DNA from: Halarcobacter sp.
Lineage (GTDB): Bacteria > Campylobacterota > Campylobacteria > Campylobacterales > Arcobacteraceae
Reading direction: 5' to 3'
Assembly (NCBI GenBank): GCA_048571215.1
Contig: CP182352.1
Location: forward strand, 3,232,001-3,296,000
Length of the DNA stretch: 64,000 nt
How positions within the stretch are numbered: the stretch's first letter is position 1; each line of letters starts with the position of its first letter. Positions 22,128 to 39,978 of this stretch are shown here, one piece after another. Below the pieces are notes generated by a model. That model did not search any database. It was not told the DNA's origin and worked only from the letters and a program-made list of their open reading frames with translations. The translations under genes were made by a program, and so were the position numbers.

Positions 22128-25100
22128 CTTGAACCAAGACATATAATGTATTGAAATGTTTTTACTTTATAAACTGGTATGGGACGAGACTACTTGAACC
22201 AAGACATATAATGTATTGAAATTTATAAATACTATCAATTAAAGCTTTTGGAAGTTGCTTGAACCAAGACATATAATGTATTGAAATTAGTTTTGTTTAA
22301 GTGGAATTAAATCGCCTTGATTGCCTTGAACCAAGACATATAATGTATTGAAATGCACTACCTCAAGAGTATTAAAATTTGTCAATGTCTTGAACCAAGA
22401 CATATAATGTATTGAAATATATTTAAAAAAAGGTAGCAAGGTTTTACTTGAGGGTCTTGAACCAAGACATATAATGTATTGAAATCGTTATCAGGTCGTT
22501 AACTTTAGTAGCTTCGGTTACCTTGAACCAAGACATATAATGTATTGAAATTCTTTAAAGTATTGCATCTGAGTTTCAGTTAGTCTAACTTGAACCAAGA
22601 CATATAATGTATTGAAATGAATTTGAATATATTAAAATAGAAGATAAAAGTAGCTTGAACCAAGACATATAATGTATTGAAATTCACTTTACCAAACAAT
22701 ACTAGCAGGTACTGGAAAAACTTGAACCAAGACATATAATGTATTGAAATTTCGTAATTTTAGATGTACCAGCGATATAGGGAGTCTTGAACCAAGACAT
22801 ATAATGTATTGAAATTAGTTAAACTTCTTTATTTATAGATGTTTTTGAACTCTTGAACCAAGACATATAATGTATTGAAATAACCCATAGTGAGTATGAG
22901 AACCTTGAAAAGTATTTCTTGAACCAAGACATATAATGTATTGAAATAATTTACCAATAGCTATTAATCTTAATCTATTGGACTTGAACCAAGACATATA
23001 ATGTATTGAAATCCAGCTCAATTAGTTAGACCTTCAATAACTGTTTCTTGAACCAAGACATATAATGTATTGAAATAGGACTATCTAGTTCTATGATTTA
23101 TGGAGCAGGAAGTCTTGAACCAAGACATATAATGTATTGAAATTAAATTGGTTTAGGCTCGTTGAAACAAAATATTTCAAACTTGAACCAAGACATATAA
23201 TGTATTGAAATTTAGCAGTAACAGATGTACAAGGTACAAAATTATCTTGAACCAAGACATATAATGTATTGAAATACATCTACATTTTATTTGACTGGGT
23301 ATGTAGTATCTTGAACCAAGACATATAATGTATTGAAATTTATATAGAACATCATTAAGTTATCCAAACGGTAACTTGAACCAAGACATATAATGTATTG
23401 AAATCATCAACCACCCCCAAATCTTTGGAGTGCAACTACTTGAACCAAGACATATAATGTATTGAAATTACTTAATAAAATATCATTCTCATTTGCTGAT
23501 GTCTTGAACCAAGACATATAATGTATTGAAATTTGTATGCAGCCATTTTGCTATTTAATTGTTGTTCCTTGAACCAAGACATATAATGTATTGAAATATT
23601 GACTTTTCATCTATTTGTTTTCTTAGTATTTCCTTGAACCAAGACATATAATGTATTGAAATAAATTAGAAATTGTCCCTACTTTATTATTCCCCTCACT
23701 TGAACCAAGACATATAATGTATTGAAATCCCTTAGTACTAAACTTAGTACTATTACACCAAACACTTGAACCAAGACATATAATGTATTGAAATTAATAA
23801 GAACCTTTCTTAAATTAAAAATTAATTAACTTGAACCAAGACATATAATGTATTGAAATATTAATAAATATTCTAAGCTGCTAAATCAAGAGTGTCTTGA
23901 ACCAAGACATATAATGTATTGAAATTTGATGAAAAACTAACAAAGGAAACTATATGAGAGCCTTGAACCAAGACATATAATGTATTGAAATTTGTTTGGT
24001 TGGATTTGGAGTAGAGAAAACAAAATACTTGAACCAAGACATATAATGTATTGAAATCGTAGAAAAATGGTAGAACAATGGAATAAAAGTGGACTTGAAC
24101 CAAGACATATAATGTATTGAAATCCAAAGTTTTCAGTTTCCCAAGCGACTATTGGTGTACTTGAACCAAGACATATAATGTATTGAAATAAAGCTACAAA
24201 TGTTGCTTATAAAGTATTTAATTTCTTGAACCAAGACATATAATGTATTGAAATTTTGAAGTTATTTTCAAATCATCAGGTCTAACCTTCTTGAACCAAG
24301 ACATATAATGTATTGAAATGCATCAAAAGTAATCACAACTTCGTCGCTATCAACCTTGAACCAAGACATATAATGTATTGAAATCTATTTTGATATTCAT
24401 CATCAGGATTTAATAAATCCTTGAACCAAGACATATAATGTATTGAAATAGGTATTGCAAATGGCGATTACTACATAATTCCTTACTTGAACCAAGACAT
24501 ATAATGTATTGAAATCAAGCTACAATATTTGTACAGTTTGCAGAAAAAGCCTTGAACCAAGACATATAATGTATTGAAATATGTATGCAAATCCAAACGG
24601 AGTATATTTCCCATTACCTTGAACCAAGACATATAATGTATTGAAATTGCACTTGATGCACTAAAATCATAGTCAGGCGAAACTTGAACCAAGACATATA
24701 ATGTATTGAAATACTGGAACAACGCTATCTCTTGGAAATAAAACAGGCCTTGAACCAAGACATATAATGTATTGAAATACTAAAGTAATAACACTAAAAC
24801 CATCATCATAAAGAGCTTGAACCAAGACATATAATGTATTGAAATCATGAAATTGCATTGACTGGGGGATATTTAATTTACCACTTGAACCAAGACATAT
24901 AATGTATTGAAATCCGCTTATAGAAATTACAAACATAGTTTTATTTGTACTTGAACCAAGACATATAATGTATTGAAATATCTCTACCCCATCTTAGAAG
25001 ATGAGATATCTTCCCCTTGAACCAAGACATATAATGTATTGAAATTCTGGTTTAAGCGTTAAGTAGCCGTTAGCATTGACTTGAACCAAGACATATAATG

Positions 25101-26086
25101 TATTGAAATTACATAGTTAAACCAATTGAAAGAGTTTGAATAACTTGAACCAAGACATATAATGTATTGAAATCGAAAATCCAGTTACTCTTTTATATTT
25201 ACTATATTCTTGAACCAAGACATATAATGTATTGAAATCAGAATGGAATATCTGGATATTTCACATTAATGAATACCTTGAACCAAGACATATAATGTAT
25301 TGAAATTAACTAAGTTAACGGCTGTCATAACTAGCACGAACTTGAACCAAGACATATAATGTATTGAAATCTCAATAGATTGATAATCATCCCCATGCAC
25401 AATAACCTTGAACCAAGACATATAATGTATTGAAATGAAACAGAGGAATCAGAACCATAACACTCAGGACTACTTGAACCAAGACATATAATGTATTGAA
25501 ATAAATGTATGAGGGGTTTCAAGGTTTAAAAAGATTCTTGAACCAAGACATATAATGTATTGAAATCACAGTTGCCATAATGTTCTTCAATTTCTAAATC
25601 ACTTGAACCAAAACATATGATGTATTGAAATAGAACTTTCTATTTTTTTGTTATCACAACCTGCACTTGAACCAAAACATATGATATATTGAAATTTAAC
25701 CGTACATTTTTGACTAATTTTCCAACCTTCTTGAATCAAGACATATGATGTATTGAAATATAATGCCTCTAAAAACACTAACAATACCAGTTTTCTTGAA
25801 CCAAGACATATGATGTATTGAAATATCATTGCACCTTTTAATAAGTTGTTTGTTGTCATTCTTGAACCAAGACATATGATGTATTGAAATAAGCTCACTC
25901 ATGCTGAATGGGCTAAAAAAAAGGTACTTGAACCAAGACGTATAATGTATTGAAATTTCTTTTTTATTTCTTAGTATAGCTACCATGCTTTCTTGAACCA
26001 AAACATATGATGTATTGAAATTTTGTATCTACATTGATATAATCAGGTTTTTCATACTTGAACCAAGACATATGATGTATTAAATA
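22128..26086 (+). CRISPR. CRISPR array, 61 repeats (30 bp CTTGAACCAAGACATATAATGTATTGAAAT) and 60 spacers of 34-38 bp
   Basis: Counted by hand. Repeats 1-53 are identical, repeats 54-61 are variant, and the last is degenerate; ATTGAAAT 3' end is typical of type I-B. Confidence 0.98.
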
Positions 26087-31937: not shown

Positions 31938-33493
31938 TATTTTGCTTTTGTTAGTAAAAAATCCCTAAGATTTTCGAAATTAGAATCTTGATATTCAGAG
32001 ATTAAATTCTCAATATTTTCATTTACATCTTCTTGGGCGAATTTTATTGAAGTTTTTTTATTGAATTGGGAATCAACTCCTTGTAAAAAACCACCAACAA
32101 GTAGCTCAAATGCTGGCACAGTCTCTCCATCTTTTTTAATCTTTGTACCAATAAGTCCTATATCAACAATATGTGGATGGGCACAAGAGTTAGGACAACC
32201 ATTTACACTTATACTTACACGTTGGTCAAAATCTGGAAATTTTGCTTCAAGATGTTCAACTAAACTTTTTGCAGTTCCTTTTGTTTCACTTATTGCAAAT
32301 TTACAAAAATTTAATCCAGTACAAGCTTGCGTTCTAGCTTTAAAATTTGATGGGAAAGCACTGATTCCAATATCTTCCAATTCCTCTGCTAGTTTTTGTG
32401 CCTTTGTTGTTGGTACATCAAGGATAATGATATTTTGTGTAACAGTTGCTTTTATCTTACTTGCTTCATATTTTTCTAATAGTGTTATTAGGTTTTTTAA
32501 GCCTTTAGCTCCTATACTCCCACTATTTAAGGCACAACCAATATAACTTTTGCCTTTTTCTTTACTCTCGTGGATACCAAAATGTTCCCTTTGTTTTGAG
32601 TTTGTGTATTCTAACTCTTTTGGTTCTTTGATTCTAAAGCTAAGGTTTGATTGTAGTGTTTCTACAAATTTTTCAATTCCCCAAGCATCGATTAGGTGTC
32701 CAAGTCTAGCTTTTCTTCTGTTTACTCTAAGACCATCTTCTTTATATATTTTTGTAACAGCTTTTGCCAATGGAACAACTTGTGATGGTGCAACATACCC
32801 AATATGTTTTGCGATTTGTTTATTTGAAGCTAAACCACCACCAACACTAACTGCGTATTGAATTCTTCCATTCTCTTGTTTTACTGCATTGAAACTTAAG
32901 TCTTGCATCTCATGGTTCATACAGTTTTTACAGCAACCATTTACCCCAACTTTATATTTTCTTGGAAGATTTGAGAAGTTTTTATTACCTTTAAAGACTG
33001 CATTTAGTTTCTCAACAATATCTGTAGTATCTGTAATTTCATCATGGTCTATTCCATTTACTGGACATGATACAACATTTCTAGGAACATCACCCGCTGC
33101 AAAGATTGAACATAGTTTTACTGTGTCTAAAAGTCTAAATATTTCAGGCAAATCTACAACTCTTATATAATGAAACTGTATATCTTGTCTTGTTGTAAAA
33201 TCAGCTGTTCCCCTTGCATAGGTTTCACTGATTTGTTCTATAACTTTTAGTTGCTCTAAATTTAACAAGCCCCCTTCAAGTTTTACCCTAAGCATAAAAT
33301 ATAAAGTTGGGTCATTCTCATCTTGTAGATTTCTATTTTGAGTATACATTCCATACCATTTAAATCTATCTATATCTTCAGGGTCTACCTCTTCACCTGT
33401 TATTGCATATCGATAGATGTCTTGAAGTACATCAAGACCATCTTTTTCTATTTTTATACGCTCAACTCTTTGAGCATTTGTTTCTTTTGCCAT
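31937..33493 (-). CDS. Ferredoxin-dependent sulfite (nitrite/sulfite) reductase, siroheme/4Fe-4S
   Basis: TTRQDIQ, NLPRKYK, ACTGLNFC, NGCPNSC; last gene of the cys operon. Confidence 0.9.
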   Translation of the reverse strand: MAKETNAQRVERIKIEKDGLDVLQDIYRYAITGEEVDPEDIDRFKWYGMYTQNRNLQDENDPTLYFMLRVKLEGGLLNLEQLKVIEQISETYARGTADFTTRQDIQFHYIRVVDLPEIFRLLDTVKLCSIFAAGDVPRNVVSCPVNGIDHDEITDTTDIVEKLNAVFKGNKNFSNLPRKYKVGVNGCCKNCMNHEMQDLSFNAVKQENGRIQYAVSVGGGLASNKQIAKHIGYVAPSQVVPLAKAVTKIYKEDGLRVNRRKARLGHLIDAWGIEKFVETLQSNLSFRIKEPKELEYTNSKQREHFGIHESKEKGKSYIGCALNSGSIGAKGLKNLITLLEKYEASKIKATVTQNIIILDVPTTKAQKLAEELEDIGISAFPSNFKARTQACTGLNFCKFAISETKGTAKSLVEHLEAKFPDFDQRVSISVNGCPNSCAHPHIVDIGLIGTKIKKDGETVPAFELLVGGFLQGVDSQFNKKTSIKFAQEDVNENIENLISEYQDSNFENLRDFLLTKAK

Positions 33494-33498
33494 ATAAA

Positions 33499-34974
33499 TT
33501 ATCCTAAAATCTCTTTACAACCCCACTCAGGGAAGTTTTCTCTAATATAAGCATTTAATGCAATCTCAGCTTGTGTATATTCTTTTTGTGGAACAGTCTC
33601 TTCTGAACTCTGAACACTATCTATAATCATACCAGCACCAACAGTTGAGTTTGTATATCTATCTATGATAATAAAACTTCCTGTATGTCTATTTTCATTA
33701 TAAGGATCAACTGCAATTTGTCTATCTAAAGATAAAGTACATTTTGCAATATCATTTAGCTCTAAAGAGTTAGTTGCTAGCTCTTCAAATGTATTTACTT
33801 CTTTTTTATACTCTATTGATTTAAATGTACCATTGATAACAGAGGTAGCTCTTTTAATAATATAGTTACTATTAAGTTCAAGTTTTTTCTCATCCATCCA
33901 AACAACCATCACTTCAAGCTTATTTGATACTTGTGGGATAGAGTTTGATTTTACAATCATATCACCTCTACTGATATCTATCTCATCTTTTAGTGTAATA
34001 GTTGTAGCCATTGGTGCAAAGGCTGTTTCTATAGTTTCAACTGTTTCATCTTTTCCTATTGGTCTTAAATCTTTAATCTCATTTGAAACAATAGATTTTA
34101 CAACTGAAGTTTTACGTGAAGGTAAAATTGTAATCTCATCACCTACACTAATACTTCCACTTGCAATTGTTCCAGAAAATCCTCTAAAGTTTAGATGAGG
34201 TCTTGATACATATTGAACTGGTAATCTAAAATCATGATTTTCAGTTTTATGAATATCAATAGTATCTAATAATTCCATAAGTGGAAGACCTTTATACCAA
34301 GTTGATTTTGGTGAATTTGTAAGGATATTATCTCCATCTAATGCAGAGATTGGGATATACTCAAAATTGATATCTTCATTATGTGGAAGATTAGGAATAA
34401 TTGTTTCATAATCTTTTTTTATCTCTTCAAATCTATCTTTGCTAAAATCAACCAAATCCATTTTATTTATAGCAACAATAAGATTTTTAATCCCAAGAAG
34501 AGAAGCTATAAAAGAGTGTCTTTTTGTTTGTGTTAAAACCCCTTGTCTTGCATCAATTAAGATAATAGCCACATCAGCTGTACTAGCACCCGTTGCCATA
34601 TTTCTTGTGTATTGTTCATGTCCTGGAGTATCTGCTATGATAAATTTTCTTTTTTCAGTTGAAAAGAATCTATAAGCAACATCAATAGTAATACCTTGTT
34701 CTCTCTCACTAGCTAATCCATCAACTAAAAGTGCTAAGTCAATTTTATCTCCAGTGGTTCCACTTTTTTTACTATCTTTTTCAATTGCAGCTAATTGGTC
34801 TTCAAAAATCATTTTTGAATCATAAAGTAATCTTCCTATTAGAGTACTTTTCCCATCATCAACTGAACCACATGTTATAAATCTTAGTATCTCTTTATTT
34901 TCATGTTCTTTTAAATATGCTTCTATACCGATAGTCGATAGTCGATTGTCGATAGTCGATTGATTTACTGCCAT
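33499..34974 (-). CDS. cysN: Sulfate adenylyltransferase subunit 1
   Basis: TCGSVDDGKSTLIGRLL, EREQGITIDVAY, DTPGHEQYTRNM, NKMD. Confidence 0.97.
   Translation of the reverse strand: MAVNQSTIDNRLSTIGIEAYLKEHENKEILRFITCGSVDDGKSTLIGRLLYDSKMIFEDQLAAIEKDSKKSGTTGDKIDLALLVDGLASEREQGITIDVAYRFFSTEKRKFIIADTPGHEQYTRNMATGASTADVAIILIDARQGVLTQTKRHSFIASLLGIKNLIVAINKMDLVDFSKDRFEEIKKDYETIIPNLPHNEDINFEYIPISALDGDNILTNSPKSTWYKGLPLMELLDTIDIHKTENHDFRLPVQYVSRPHLNFRGFSGTIASGSISVGDEITILPSRKTSVVKSIVSNEIKDLRPIGKDETVETIETAFAPMATTITLKDEIDISRGDMIVKSNSIPQVSNKLEVMVVWMDEKKLELNSNYIIKRATSVINGTFKSIEYKKEVNTFEELATNSLELNDIAKCTLSLDRQIAVDPYNENRHTGSFIIIDRYTNSTVGAGMIIDSVQSSEETVPQKEYTQAEIALNAYIRENFPEWGCKEILG
34929..34963. repeat. Five tandem heptamers CGAT(A/T)G(T/A) inside the cysN 5' end
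   Basis: CGATAGT CGATAGT CGATTGT CGATAGT CGATTGA. Confidence 0.9.
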
Positions 34975-35327
34975 TATTTCTTTTCCTCTTTATTTATACT
35001 ATTAATTAATCCTGTTAACATTTTTCCTATTTCCTCTAGGTCTTTTATCCATTTATTACCAATGTTTGTATCTATATATTTTATCTTCATACCTATATAG
35101 ATTTGGGTTTGTGCTTCAGCTAAAGAGCCTCTTGCTATATCTAAGAATCTAATTTTTTCTTTGTCTGAAATTCTTTCTAAGCCCTCAGCTATATTACTAG
35201 GAATTGACAATCCACTTCTAGTAATTTGATCTTTAAATCCATAATCTTTTAGACTAGCAAGTTCTAAATAGATTTCAGATGATAAAGCAGCTGATTTTTT
35301 CCAAACATCTAAATTTTTACATTTCAT
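34974..35327 (-). CDS. Four-helix-bundle protein (23S rRNA IVP / TIGR02436 / Avd-like family)
   Basis: LDVWKKS, DQITRSGLSIPSNIAEG, FLDIARGSLAEAQTQ; stop overlaps cysN start (TAATG). Confidence 0.92.
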   Translation of the reverse strand: MKCKNLDVWKKSAALSSEIYLELASLKDYGFKDQITRSGLSIPSNIAEGLERISDKEKIRFLDIARGSLAEAQTQIYIGMKIKYIDTNIGNKWIKDLEEIGKMLTGLINSINKEEKK

Positions 35328-35349
35328 ATTATTATTCCTTAGTTAATAA

Positions 35350-35405
35350 CAATAGTCAATTGTCCATAGTATTTCTATTGACTATAGACCATCGACTATT
35401 GACTA
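35350..35405. repeat. Two inverted blocks of tandem heptamers between cysD and the four-helix-bundle gene
   Basis: CAATAGT CAATTGT CCATAGT (35350-35370), then TCTATTG ACTATAG ACCATCG ACTATTG ACTA (35374-35405). Confidence 0.85.
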
Positions 35406-36314
35406 AAAATACCCCTCTTGTTTTTTCTTCTCCATTGATGCTTCACCATCACTATCTATAAGTCTTCCTTGTCTCTCACTAGTTGTACAAATCAACATCT
35501 CTTGAATAATCTCAGGGAGTGTTGTTGCTTCACTATTTACTGCACCTGTTAAGGGATAACAACCAAGTGTTCTAAATCTCACTTTCTCTTTTTTAGCAGT
35601 TTTTCGTAATTCTTCAGGCATTCTATCATCATCAACCATGATTTTTGTACCCATATATTCTACTACTTCACGCTCTTTTGAGAAGTATAAATCAGGAATA
35701 GGAATCTTTTCTAAATAGATATATTGCCAAATATCAAGTTCTGTCCAGTTTGATATTGGAAAAACTCTAATAGATTCACCTTTTGTGTGTCTTCCATTAT
35801 ATATATTCCATAACTCTGGTCTTTGGTTTTTTGGATCCCATCTATGGTTTTCATCTCTAAAAGAGTAGATTCTCTCTTTTGCACGAGATTTCTCTTCATC
35901 CCTTCTTGCTCCACCAAATACTGCATCAAATTTTTGCATATCTAGCATCTGTTTTAGACCTTCTGTTTTCATAATATCAGTATGAACAGCACTTCCATGA
36001 GTAAAAGGGGAGATATTCATCTCTAAACCTTTTGGATTAGAATAAACAATAAGTTCCATTCCAACCTCTTTTGCCCGTCTATCACGAAACTCTATCATCT
36101 CTTTAAACTTCCAAGTTGTATCAACATGTACTAATGGAAGTGGTGGAGGTGCTGGATAAAAAGCTTTTTGTAAAATATGTAGCATTACAGAAGAATCTTT
36201 TCCTACTGAGTACAGCATTGCTGGGTTTTGAAACTCTGCTATTACTTCTCTCATTATATGTATTGATTCTGCTTCTAGCTGTTTTAAATGGGTAAGTCTT
36301 TCCTTACTTATCAT
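35403..36314 (-). CDS. cysD: Sulfate adenylyltransferase subunit 2
   Basis: [54 protein letters not shown]. Confidence 0.97.
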
Positions 36315-36378
36315 AATCTCTCCATTAATTGTATTTAAATATTTTTTTAGATTCTTTCAAATTAAAAGTTTGATTCAT

Positions 36379-37074
36379 CTATTTTGCGTGTAATCCACAC
36401 TCTTTATGTTCTGGGTTCTCCCACCACCATCTTCCACTTCTAATATCTTCACCTTCTTTTACAGCCCTTGTACAGGGTGCACATCCAATACTTGGAAACC
36501 CAAGGTCATGAAGTTTATTGTATGGGACTTTGTTTTCTTTTATATATTTCCATACATCTTCTTCACTCCAATTAATTAAAGGGTTTACTTTTATTACATG
36601 GAAATTTTCATCGTATTCAATTACTGGCATATCAACTCTTGTTACACTTTGAGCTGCTCTTAGTCCTGTAATCCAAACCTTTAGAGGTTTTAATGCTCTT
36701 TTTAAAGGCTCAATTTTTCTAATATTACAACATCTTTTTCTATTATCAATACTTTCAAAGTGTCCATTTACCCCTTGAAGTTTATATAGTTTTTCTACAT
36801 CTTCATTTAGTGGGAAAAATATCTCTAGTTTAATACCATATTTTAAATTTGTTGCATCCATAACATTATAGGTTTCTGGATGTAATCTTCCCGTATCTAG
36901 TGTAAATATGTTTGCATTTTTATCTATTTTCAAAATCATATCTGTCAAAACTTGATCTTCAGCACCCAAGCTACTTGAAAGTGCTGCTTCTTGTTTATAC
37001 TCAGTTAAAAAATATTTTAAAATATCTTGAGCATTTGTATTTTTAAATTTTTTATTTAAATCTTCAATATCCAT
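36379..37074 (-). CDS. cysH: APS/PAPS reductase (CC and CxxC present, so likely 4Fe-4S APS reductase)
   Basis: LDTG, RCCNIRK, WITGLR, SIGCAPCT, ECGLH. Confidence 0.93.
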   Translation of the reverse strand: MDIEDLNKKFKNTNAQDILKYFLTEYKQEAALSSSLGAEDQVLTDMILKIDKNANIFTLDTGRLHPETYNVMDATNLKYGIKLEIFFPLNEDVEKLYKLQGVNGHFESIDNRKRCCNIRKIEPLKRALKPLKVWITGLRAAQSVTRVDMPVIEYDENFHVIKVNPLINWSEEDVWKYIKENKVPYNKLHDLGFPSIGCAPCTRAVKEGEDIRSGRWWWENPEHKECGLHAK

Positions 37075-37082
37075 TATCTACC

Positions 37083-37307
37083 TTAAATCTGATAATCTGG
37101 TTCTTTTACTTTTCCAAAAGAGATTTTATTCCAAGCTCTTTCATGAAAATAATATAAAATCATTTTTGTAACAACTTCAATAGAACCAATTGAAGCAGCC
37201 ATAATTAGGTTGCCTGTTACTAAATATGAGATTATCATTGTGTCTAAGGTTCCTACTGTTCTCCATGATACTGTTTTAGCAACAGATCTATATGCCTTTT
37301 CCGCCAT
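37083..37307 (-). CDS. DUF2061 small membrane protein
   Basis: RSVAKTVSWR...LYYFHERAW. Confidence 0.88.
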   Translation of the reverse strand: MAEKAYRSVAKTVSWRTVGTLDTMIISYLVTGNLIMAASIGSIEVVTKMILYYFHERAWNKISFGKVKEPDYQI

Positions 37308-37349
37308 TTTTGTCCCTCATTCTAATCATTTATACTAAGATGAGTATTC

Positions 37350-38276
37350 CTACTCATCGTCGTATAAACCAGAACTTAAGTATCTTTCCCCTGTATCACA
37401 AAGAATAGTAACTATAACTTTCCCTTTGTTTTCTGGTTTAGAAGCTATTTTTTCTGCAATAAACACATTTGCACCTGCTGAAACACCAACAAGTAGTCCC
37501 TCTTGATTTGCAAGTTTTCTTGAAGTTGCTATTGCGTCTTCATTTGATACTTGAACAACTTCATCATAAACTTCAGTATTTAAAATATCTGGAACAAATC
37601 CAGCTCCAATACCTTGAATTCTATGAGGTCCTGGTTTCCCACCACTCAATACAGGTGATGCTTCTGGTTCAACTGCAATCACTTGAATATCTGGATTGTG
37701 TGCTTTTAAAATTTCACCCGTACCTGTAATAGTTCCACCTGTTCCAATTGCTGCAACTAAGATGTCAATTTTTCCATCAGTATCAGCTAAAATCTCTTTT
37801 GCTGTTGTTTGTCTATGAATCTCTGGATTTGCTTCATTTGCAAATTGTTGAGGAACAAAAGAGTTAGGTGTTTGTTCTGCTAATTCATTTGCTTTATCAA
37901 CTGCACCTTTCATACCTTTTTCTGGTTCTGTTAAAACAAGTTCAGCTCCAAGTGCTTTTAGAAGTTTTCTTCTTTCGATACTCATTGAAGAAGGCATTGT
38001 AAGTGTAAGTTTTATTCCAAGACCTGCACAAACAGAAGCTAAGGCAATCCCTGTATTACCACTTGTTGGCTCAAATACAACTGTATCTTCATTGATTAAA
38101 CCTTTTTCTAAAGCTGATTTAATCATATTTGTCCCAATTCTATCTTTTACTGAATGAGTAGGGTTCATAAACTCACATTTTCCTAATATTGTTGCTCCTG
38201 CTCTTTCACTAGCTTTTTGAAGCTTAACTAATGGCGTATTTCCAATTAACTCTGTAACATTTTGTGCAAATTTCAT
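37350..38276 (-). CDS. cysK: Cysteine synthase A
   Basis: IGNTPLV, SVKDRIG, EPTSGNTG, GTGGT, IQGIGAG; start at MKFAQ after AAGGA. Confidence 0.96.
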   Translation of the reverse strand: MKFAQNVTELIGNTPLVKLQKASERAGATILGKCEFMNPTHSVKDRIGTNMIKSALEKGLINEDTVVFEPTSGNTGIALASVCAGLGIKLTLTMPSSMSIERRKLLKALGAELVLTEPEKGMKGAVDKANELAEQTPNSFVPQQFANEANPEIHRQTTAKEILADTDGKIDILVAAIGTGGTITGTGEILKAHNPDIQVIAVEPEASPVLSGGKPGPHRIQGIGAGFVPDILNTEVYDEVVQVSNEDAIATSRKLANQEGLLVGVSAGANVFIAEKIASKPENKGKVIVTILCDTGERYLSSGLYDDE

Positions 38277-38286
38277 TTTATTTCCT

Positions 38287-38700
38287 TTATATACTATAGT
38301 GTAAAAATTCGTTATATTTATCTTGATATTCATCTAGTTTTGATAGATTGATATCGAAGATATCCTTCATACCTCTTTTAGCATCATCAAAGAAGATATT
38401 CAAAATAGGATTTTCAGTTTTATTATCAATGATTTTCAAATCACCTTCTAATGCAACTAAAATATCTTTTACAGATATCTGCTCTGGTTTTTTTGCTAAT
38501 ATATACCCACCTTTTGCTCCTCTAATACTTTTAACTAAATCAGCTCGTCTTAGTTTACTCAGTAGTTGCTCAAGATAATTTTGAGGTATATTTGCATTTG
38601 AAGATATTTCCCTAATTTGCATGGGAGTATCTTCATCATGCTTACTTAATTCATACATGGCAGTTAAACCATATACACCTTTTGTTGATATCAAAGGCAT
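38287..38700 (-). CDS. Rrf2 family regulator lacking Fe-S cysteines (CymR-like)
   Basis: STKGVYGL, YLEQLL, SIRGAKGGY; no Cys; directly upstream of cysK. Confidence 0.88.
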   Translation of the reverse strand: MPLISTKGVYGLTAMYELSKHDEDTPMQIREISSNANIPQNYLEQLLSKLRRADLVKSIRGAKGGYILAKKPEQISVKDILVALEGDLKIIDNKTENPILNIFFDDAKRGMKDIFDINLSKLDEYQDKYNEFLHYSI

Positions 38701-38709
38701 AATAATACC

Positions 38710-39978
38710 TTAACTTAATGCTTGTTCTAAATCTTCAATCAAATCTTTTGAATCTTCTAATCCAATAGATAACCTAATAGTAGTTGGATTAACTCCAGCT
38801 TCTTTTAATCCCTCTTCACTTAATTGTGAGTGTGTTGTTGAAGCAGGGTGTACTATTAAAGATTTTGAATCTCCAATATTTACAACTACACTAAATAGTT
38901 TTGCTTTGTCAATAATCGCTTTTGCTGTATCGTAATCTTCTACTTCAAAAGAGATAAGTCCTGAAGCTTTACCATCTTTGAAATACTTTTGTGCTTTTTC
39001 ATAGTTGTCATTTGACTTAAGACCTGGATAGTTAACTGATTTAACTTTTGGGTTTGATTCAAGATATTTTGCTACTTCTAAAGAAGTACTTGAGTGTTTT
39101 TCAACTCTAATAGATAAAGTTTCTAAACCTTGAATTAAAAGCCAAGAGTTTAATGGTGATTGAGTTGCTCCAATATCTCTTAAAAGATTTAGTCTAATTC
39201 TTAGACAAAAATTTGGTAAAGGAACATCTGTATAAACTAATCCATGGTATGATTCATCAGGTTCACAAAAGTGATAATATCTTTTTGAATTCTCTTTAAA
39301 GAATTCAGCTAAACCATCTCTTTCTATTACAATTCCACCTACAGCTGTACCTTGACCATTTGTGTATTTAGAAGTTGAGTGAACTACAATATCTACTCCC
39401 CATGAGATTGGATTAAATAAGGCTGCTGTTGCAACTGTATTATCACATATAGTCAATACACCATGTTTTTTTGCTATTTTAACTATAGCTTCCACATCTG
39501 CAATTGCAATTTGTGGATTTGATAATGATTCAAAGAAGATAGCTTTTGTATTTTCATCAATTTGCTCTTCTAAGTTTGAAGCATCTGCACTTTTAAATAC
39601 TTTTGCTTTAATACCAAATCTTTTAATTGTATGTGTTAATAGGGTAATTGCACCACCATAAAGTTTATCTGAGATAATGATATTATCTCCAGCTTCTGCA
39701 ACATTTGCGATTGCATAAAAAATTGCAGCTTGTCCACTTGCTGTACAAATACCAGCTGCTCCACCTTCAAGTTGAGCATATCTTTGCTCTAATACATCTG
39801 TTGTAGGATTAGTAAGTCTTGTATAGATTGGTCCTAACTCTTTTAATGCAAATAAGTTTGCAGCGTGCTCTGCATCTCTAAAAGCATAAGCAGTAGTTTG
39901 TGTAATAGGAACTGACATTGTTCCAAAACCCTCTTTTTTATCGTATCCTGCGTGAATTGCTATTGTATCTTTTTGCAT
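38710..39978 (-). CDS. metY: O-acetylhomoserine/O-acetylserine sulfhydrylase (MetY-like)
   Basis: IYTRLTNPT, SGQAA, HSTSKY, NIGDSKSLIVHPASTTH, IRLSIGLE. Confidence 0.9.
   Translation of the reverse strand: MQKDTIAIHAGYDKKEGFGTMSVPITQTTAYAFRDAEHAANLFALKELGPIYTRLTNPTTDVLEQRYAQLEGGAAGICTASGQAAIFYAIANVAEAGDNIIISDKLYGGAITLLTHTIKRFGIKAKVFKSADASNLEEQIDENTKAIFFESLSNPQIAIADVEAIVKIAKKHGVLTICDNTVATAALFNPISWGVDIVVHSTSKYTNGQGTAVGGIVIERDGLAEFFKENSKRYYHFCEPDESYHGLVYTDVPLPNFCLRIRLNLLRDIGATQSPLNSWLLIQGLETLSIRVEKHSSTSLEVAKYLESNPKVKSVNYPGLKSNDNYEKAQKYFKDGKASGLISFEVEDYDTAKAIIDKAKLFSVVVNIGDSKSLIVHPASTTHSQLSEEGLKEAGVNPTTIRLSIGLEDSKDLIEDLEQALS

Follow-up and report, generated by a model that had tools for sequence, protein, structure and literature searches.

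We found that a 117-aa four-helix-bundle gene situated between cysD and cysN in Halarcobacter sp. is enclosed by inverted arrays of heptamers, and we are confident that the gene and its two arms constitute a cassette. It is an intervening sequence (IVS)-like cassette located at an mRNA junction. It was revealed in the window, that is, the whole 64,000-nucleotide stretch analyzed here (contig CP182352.1, positions 3,232,001 to 3,296,000 of the forward strand; all coordinates below are those of the window). Relatives, and a second cysDN copy of the same genome, either lack the unit at this junction or have it replaced or internally deleted. On balance, we slightly favor the view that this is a widespread, transposase-free cassette swapped as a block at operon junctions, whose protein would form an Avd-like ring binding its own arrays. 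To our knowledge, PF05635, the large family to which this protein belongs, has no known function and is represented by two solved structures, and we know of no established origin or partner of bacterial heptamer repeats.

Structure of the cassette and its surroundings

All elements are located on the minus strand. The host gene cysD (35403–36314) ends in a TAG stop codon (35405–35403) that abuts the cassette. Directly after the stop lies the 5' arm, A (35374–35401), composed of four heptamers of G/T-type polarity, the reverse complement of an ACTATCG-like unit (CAAUAGU CGAUGGU CUAUAGU CAAUAGA on the mRNA strand). It is followed by block B (35350–35370), three heptamers of C polarity (ACUAUGG ACAAUUG ACUAUUG) that form an inverted near-copy of A, with 18 of 21 bases in agreement. 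The Shine–Dalgarno-like AAGGA of the four-helix-bundle gene (35336–35340) is predicted to pair with the last cysD codons below the A:B hairpin. The gene itself (34974–35327) was assigned to TIGR02436/PF05635 by its profile scores and is under strong purifying selection. Inside its 3' end, a GAGG at 34985–34988 is likely to serve as the ribosome-binding site of cysN.

The stop codon of the cassette gene and the start codon of cysN overlap as TAATG (34976–34972). Because of this overlap, arm C (34929–34963), five heptamers of ACTATCG type just after the gene stop (UCAAUCG ACUAUCG ACAAUCG ACUAUCG ACUAUCG), lies wholly within cysN (33499–34974). It encodes CysN residues 5–15, which replace the native N-terminus. 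The cassette thus supplies the start of cysN and keeps the operon readable. The three blocks and the gene correspond to the description in the earlier note from which this analysis started.

A tandem-run scan of the 3.6-Mb genome for the cassette unit returned A and C only, B being below the filter, and just three non-trivial arrays passed a genome-wide period-7 scan. Two DNA runs each yielded a 540-base contig across the cassette with zero differences; these runs are possibly from the source sample and therefore do not count as independent confirmation. Together with the presence of the same arm C in the genome G135, the contigs rule out an assembly artefact. A promoter scan gave 20 sigma-70-like sites against 22 expected, including one 10-of-12 site overlapping B; since such sites were no commoner than expected, a promoter in B was rejected. 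No terminator-like site was found within the cassette, and no rRNA match was found in 33000–37500. Rfam gave no family matches, its one sub-threshold match being irrelevant and outside the cassette.

Distribution and exchange of the cassette

The junction was empty in all 24 other genomes of the same genus: cysD and cysN were adjacent in 23 of them and separated by a plain spacer in one. These genomes retain the native CysN N-terminus that is replaced in the window. The genome under study contains a second cysDN copy, in an apparent polysaccharide cluster, with cysD 97.3% identical over 35399–36298 and cysN 99.0% identical over 33515–34927. The differences between the two copies are confined to 34928–35398; this segment, delimited by the copy-versus-copy alignment, is the exchanged unit. 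At the corresponding place the second copy has a cassette with an internally deleted gene from another four-helix-bundle lineage and with different inverted heptamers. Intact versions of this second type were found in genomes G025, G142 and G159, and a 17-base relic of its 5' arm, matching that of G025 and G142 without a difference, is present in frame in the variable linker of the window's cysN (33603–33619). A search of the genome gave a single intact PF05635 gene besides one remnant. Across the bacterial family, a PF05635 match above the cut-off was obtained for 41 of 184 genomes.

The whole cysD-cassette-cysN stretch was matched in six other genomes, and one further gutted cassette was detected in G076. 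Among 58 distinct cysD/cysN junctions, 31 were short, 23 carried the full-length gene, two a deleted gene and two something else; as this set was gathered by searching for the gene, the counts do not represent a frequency. At least five unit types occur at the junction. Grouping of 18 of the cysD/cysN cassette proteins as one clade was rejected (AU test, p = 1.3e-4; 11 changes; L309, which has masked bases, excluded; the group was set by location, after a related tree had been seen), and a single ancestral insertion was rejected with it. Proteins closely related to that of the window are also encoded at the cysN/cysC junction and ahead of pepA or hldE. The cassette is not tied to sulfur metabolism, and a role in sulfate assimilation is likely incidental.

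In an identity profile against a genome of another genus, the cysDN tract reached mostly 90–100% and its flanks 66–86%. Thus, the locus was exchanged between genera. No target-site duplication was seen when filled and empty junctions were compared by eye, and the native first codons of cysN had been replaced. The sharp borders of the unit would fit exchange at the level of the cassette; the same picture would result if the second copy had converted the flanks. A gene-less form was also observed: in G121, the window's own unit makes up a hairpin, in frame, in the linker of cysN. The suggestion of the earlier note that gene and repeats make up a self-contained unit is borne out by these comparisons, in which they are gained, replaced and gutted as a block. 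Repeats without the gene, which that note had named as evidence to the contrary, do exist in deleted cassettes and gene-less hairpins; these look like products of decay rather than counter-examples.

The same layout was found well beyond this junction. We analyzed 100 loci, obtained from 124 with full flanks by reduction at 90% identity. Seven was the best period in 82 of the 3' flanks and in 58 of the 5' flanks. Scored as inverted repeats, the two arms of one locus reached a median of 14.75, versus 7.5 for cross pairs of arms, and exceeded the 95th percentile of the cross pairs at 76 loci in inverted orientation versus 21 in direct orientation. In a larger set (217 matches, 194 with flanks, 146 after reduction) crude ORF calls identified both neighbors at 122 loci, of which 105 had both in the same direction as the gene, and the downstream ORF started no more than 10 bases from the stop of the gene in 40 of 119. 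Of 84 A arms, 50 have four to five copies, as do 68 of 98 C arms; the minimum of three copies set for detection bounds the copy-number mode from below. Heptamers of the same polarity flank the gene in relatives, a point that the earlier note had proposed to check.

The unit itself follows the protein. It was the same within one base in 78% of the 40 pairs with more than 80% protein identity, in 14% of the 289 pairs at 70–80% identity and in at most 4% of pairs below 70%. The arms change unit together. An upstream arm in B polarity was detected at no fewer than 9 of 85 loci, in a few other clades; the architecture classifier missed the window's own B, so that all counts of B are lower bounds.

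The encoded protein and the pairing of the arms

The 117-aa ORF greatly exceeds the curated cut-offs of PF05635 (117 vs 33.8 bits) and TIGR02436 (112 vs 24 bits). An AlphaFold2 model (pLDDT 96) consists of four long helices that can be superposed on those of 2GSC and 2RLD, with a TM-score of 0.89 and an rmsd of 1.3 for 2GSC; for the Avd structure 4DWL the TM-score was 0.77. With the Avd profile the protein scores 22.1 bits, far below the cut-off of 80. Both 2GSC and 2RLD contain five chains, and by analogy with these and with Avd the protein likely forms a five-subunit, Avd-like ring.

Both the gene and its 3' arm are under selection. Comparison with G135 gave dN 0.042 and dS 1.17, i.e., a dN/dS of about 0.04, with the synonymous sites of the cassette gene saturated. 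The synonymous sites of arm C, in turn, are unusually conserved: one of its 13 codons differs, whereas in the cysN codons that follow the figure is 68 of 125 (p = 6e-4). Thus, the protein and the repeat sequence are both constrained.

We consider the chances about even that the protein binds the arms of its own cassette, a proposal made by analogy with Avd. In the Avd pentamer each protomer grips flipped-out bases of an RNA stem-loop with the same residues (bioRxiv 10.1101/2023.10.23.563531), and an array of four to five copies suits a five-part ring. Phase-free covariation over 86 loci in 43 clusters pointed to two residues, namely residue 50 (L50), where helix 2 ends (z = 6.3; none of 500 permutations as high), and I111. 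In an independent set, in which 13 of 45 new loci passed the filters and 12 could be scored, the signal at residue 50 was in the predicted direction in seven (p = 0.17) and was not replicated. Phased residue-to-base tests were borderline or null: assignment of phase by EM was unstable, and with a fixed phase only A70 was at the limit of the null distribution. We therefore make no claim of a residue-to-base code, L50 having failed to replicate. It should also be kept in mind that a unit following the clade is expected from descent alone.

Both pairings of arm A put forward in the earlier note are predicted by folding, at energies below those of nearly all shuffled sequences. The A:B hairpin has -26.9 kcal/mol on the mRNA strand (z = -5.2, none of 200 shuffles as good) and -17.0 on the other strand, and it dominates local folding. 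In the fold of the region as a whole, A:C is the outermost stem (z = -2.6, one of 100 shuffles as good). As duplexes on the mRNA strand, A:C and A:B have -30.8 and -25.5 kcal/mol; A:C is stronger on the antisense strand, at -37.0. The ensembles, -102.2 kcal/mol for A:C versus -100.0 for A:B, slightly favor A:C at equilibrium.

The comparative evidence comes from those 110 of the 146 loci that have a stem. Read on the mRNA strand, these stems contain fewer G-U than A-C oppositions (72 vs 124), and loci with more G-U were outnumbered by loci with more A-C (23 vs 41, 46 ties, p = 0.033), a result partly confounded by arm composition. In local hairpins no enrichment of G-U was found either (5 vs 10 upstream, 15 vs 13 downstream); an excess of G-U as a sign of pairing in mRNA is thus absent from both long stems and local hairpins. 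Rates of substitution in the arms look alike in repeat polarity and not in mRNA polarity. Variant units were mirrored in register in 46 of 73 (p = 0.034) and in 42 of 73 of the reversed control, a weakly positive result that still allows pairing some role. For the most part the two arms share one consensus word, a pattern more in keeping with recognition than with selection for a duplex. Joints seen in the DNA runs are no evidence of splicing, as they match the second copy or cassette-free alleles. Of 20 sequencing runs, one is recorded as RNA; its contigs, which belong to relatives, leave most of the cassette uncovered.

These data bear directly on the three other explanations that we weighed. 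According to one of them, the gene acts as an intervening sequence at the mRNA level: the stem between A and C would be cut by RNase III and the gene released, as in 23S rRNA. The outer position and strength of the A:C stem on the mRNA strand and the weak mirroring speak for it, and so do two precedents for RNase III: it cuts the same heptamer layout in Coxiella rRNA (PMC4990558) and processes a hairpin made of heptamers in the leader of Haemophilus hmw (PMC12721329). Nevertheless, the start of cysN and codons 5–15 are inside the unit; cutting the A:C stem would remove the CysN start and destroy the cysN message. The downstream ORF also begins within 10 bases of the stop in the 40 loci mentioned above, the stem is stronger on the antisense strand and A-C oppositions outnumber G-U, with the confounding already noted. 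We know of no re-ligation after IVS excision. An intervening sequence at the mRNA level, as considered in the earlier note, is not supported in view of the coding nature of C and the shortage of G-U; we regard this explanation as improbable, and functional excision from the mRNA is to be doubted to the same degree. Still less probable, in our opinion, is an RNA switch responding to sulfur, with A pairing by turns with B and C and so controlling translation of cysN. It draws on the closeness of the two ensembles (within about 2 kcal/mol), on the greater strength of the A:B hairpin on the mRNA strand and on the B-polarity arms of a few other clades; it is opposed by the empty junction of the 24 congeners, the position of relatives beside unrelated genes and the lack of an Rfam family match. 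In addition, block B is absent from all seven other cysD/cysN cassettes with the same unit, each of which has C inside cysN, so that a conserved A:B/A:C switch is not supported. B is private to the window's copy, where it may act locally.

The remaining explanation regards the arms as a by-product or handle of insertion, of hairpin or template-switch origin, and the protein as unrelated to them; the cassette would be a tolerated passenger moved by homologous recombination of cysDN. We judge it unlikely, if less so than excision or a switch. Its merits are that the residue-to-base code was not replicated, that the gene is often deleted with the arms kept, that the cysDN tract was exchanged between genera and that the Coxiella ORF decays and is probably untranslated (PMC4990558). 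It does not account for the conservation of synonymous sites in arm C next to a gene whose own are saturated, for the joint switching of unit by both arms along the protein tree, or for the narrow range of period and copy number.

Known systems and the proposed mode of spread

The closest known counterpart is the S23p IVS in the 23S rRNA of Coxiella burnetii, for which PMC4990558 describes a 28-bp terminal stem, heptamers before the start codon, deletions and cutting by RNase III. The window's cassette shares with it the protein family, an ORF enclosed by inverted repeats, the heptamers in front of the start codon, variable copy number, internal deletions and horizontal acquisition. In contrast to the Coxiella element, it is situated at an mRNA gene junction between cysD and cysN instead of an rRNA helix, its 3' arm forms part of the coding region of the gene that follows, and its ORF keeps a ribosome-binding site and is under purifying selection. 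Excision would also be expected to be harmful here, whereas the host RNA of an IVS stays functional. The earlier note had seen in the locus a candidate for an undescribed system. This has to be restricted, as the design is not special to cysD/cysN and its rRNA form, heptamers included, is already in print (PMC4990558); for sites outside rRNA, no gene-plus-heptamer-arm cassette was found described in a literature search that covered few subscription papers.

Other systems share single features with it. The Avd protein of DGR has the same fold (TM-score of 0.77 to 4DWL) and provides the precedent of a pentameric nucleic-acid-binding protein; the window's protein differs from it in profile score (22 vs 80 bits) and in its neighbors, two cys genes on each side and no reverse transcriptase among them. 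In what is available of PMC10053308 only the likeness of PF05635 to Avd is noted. Unlike an insertion sequence or MITE, the cassette has no transposase, near-identical copies or target-site duplication, and its arrays are unique in the genome.

The GGGAATC repeats of Xanthomonas and Nostoc, about 185 per genome, are mostly gene-less and have G-quadruplex-forming potential (PMC4692102). They resemble the window's arrays in having 7-base units, a mode of four copies and inverted pairs between co-directional genes, with the G-rich strand just past stops and its complement just before starts; in contrast, the window's unit is unique in its genome and lacks G runs. According to the supplement of the same paper, a four-unit heptamer run overlaps the start of XCC0516, which encodes the protein solved as 2GSC; XCC0516 does not appear in the main text. 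The 5' leader of Haemophilus hmw likewise places a heptamer array, with a unit that begins purine-pyrimidine-pyrimidine as those of the cassettes do, in an mRNA hairpin, yet it is one long phase-variable array that encloses no gene, and its cutting by RNase III was shown (PMC12721329).

Thus, the following scheme can be proposed. The mobile unit would be the conserved gene of the four-helix bundle together with the inverted heptamer array on either side of it, and it would be transcribed from the host operon. It would spread by recombination at or just beside the arms and be carried with cysDN between genera. The ring would read about one unit per subunit, which would keep arms and protein matched. 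In the window's copy, B may have arisen as a local inverted copy of A and would pair with A first during transcription, so that the long A:C stem would rarely form; as equilibrium slightly favors A:C, this step rests on kinetics. Translation of cysN would be coupled to that of the cassette gene.

The locus links PF05635 proteins to bacterial heptamer repeats. It pairs a protein with its own 7-base unit, and the second unit in the same genome offers a built-in control of specificity. Here, a non-triplet repeat carried by a foreign cassette provides a core enzyme with a rewritten N-terminus, and the cassette was exchanged almost exactly from arm to arm without a transposase. To the systems already known, the locus adds two cassette types between near-identical flanks, a border that matches the arms and a measured constraint on a coding arm.

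A broader, more speculative possibility, which we consider less likely than not, is that PF05635 proteins in general are sequence-specific rings that read their own heptamers, one unit per subunit, and define transposase-free mobile cassettes. Such cassettes would lodge at junctions within operons, in linkers where the frame is kept and in helices of rRNA, and could take over the start of the next gene, and loss of their gene would leave heptamer hairpins. If this is true, the takeover of the start of the next host gene would make that gene dependent on the cassette, and the unexplained heptamer hairpins of many bacterial genomes would be cassettes that have lost their gene.

Local partners of the arms in the two cysDN copies

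In the window, arm A of the cysD/cysN cassette lies beside block B, its inverted near-copy. In the cassette of the second cysDN copy of this genome (L125:10680-10960, corresponding to about 2072700-2072950 of C1 in G000), an internal deletion has juxtaposed a stretch of the gene and the 5' arm, and the two form a local hairpin (z = -4.4). Therefore, arm A has a local partner in both cysDN copies. In the RNA sequencing run X5, a single contig with a depth of 7.7, ending at window position 35399, runs from the cysD stop into the arm of the second cassette, followed by that cassette's internal gene stretch in reverse-complement orientation. This contig may have arisen as a fold-back artefact, or it may reflect an inversion between the two stretches that pair.

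Gene-free hairpins and CRISPR-like arrays

At window 22850-25760 lies a long CRISPR-like array whose repeat measures about 30 bases, and the same genome contains a second such array with a different repeat. Outside the window, at G000:C1:1587150-1587700, a CRISPR-like array terminates in three tandem units, each composed of a partial repeat and a heptamer hairpin without a gene. The arms of these hairpins are of the type found in another four-helix-bundle clade, and no gene of this clade was found in the own genome. In the operon of the related genome G121 (L088/L128; cysN linker and cysN/cysC junction), an in-frame hairpin without a gene was also revealed within cysN, in addition to two cassettes with differing units.

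Variation and insertions in the cys region

Related cysD/cysN cassettes vary in arm period, which is 8 bases in L189 and about 9-10 bases in L221. In L130 and L207 the four-helix-bundle open reading frame extends across arm C, and about 20 of its codons overlap with the start of cysN, which is read in a different frame. In L129 (2351-4114), about 130 extra residues are fused to CysN at the linker; we assume that they resemble a PemK/MazF-type domain, a label for which a scan at E 1e-8 gave no confirmation.

Comparison with relatives revealed two short tracts of high identity within a region that elsewhere has 66-90% identity: window 36250-36500 is 98-100% identical to one relative and 38250-38750 is 93-99% identical to a different one. 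Since these tracts match different relatives, the cys region of the window is, judging from sequence, a recombination mosaic. The cysD/cysN junction of L194 is occupied by two small open reading frames, presumably resembling a nucleotidyltransferase-HEPN pair, and this content shows that the junction is a general insertion hot spot.
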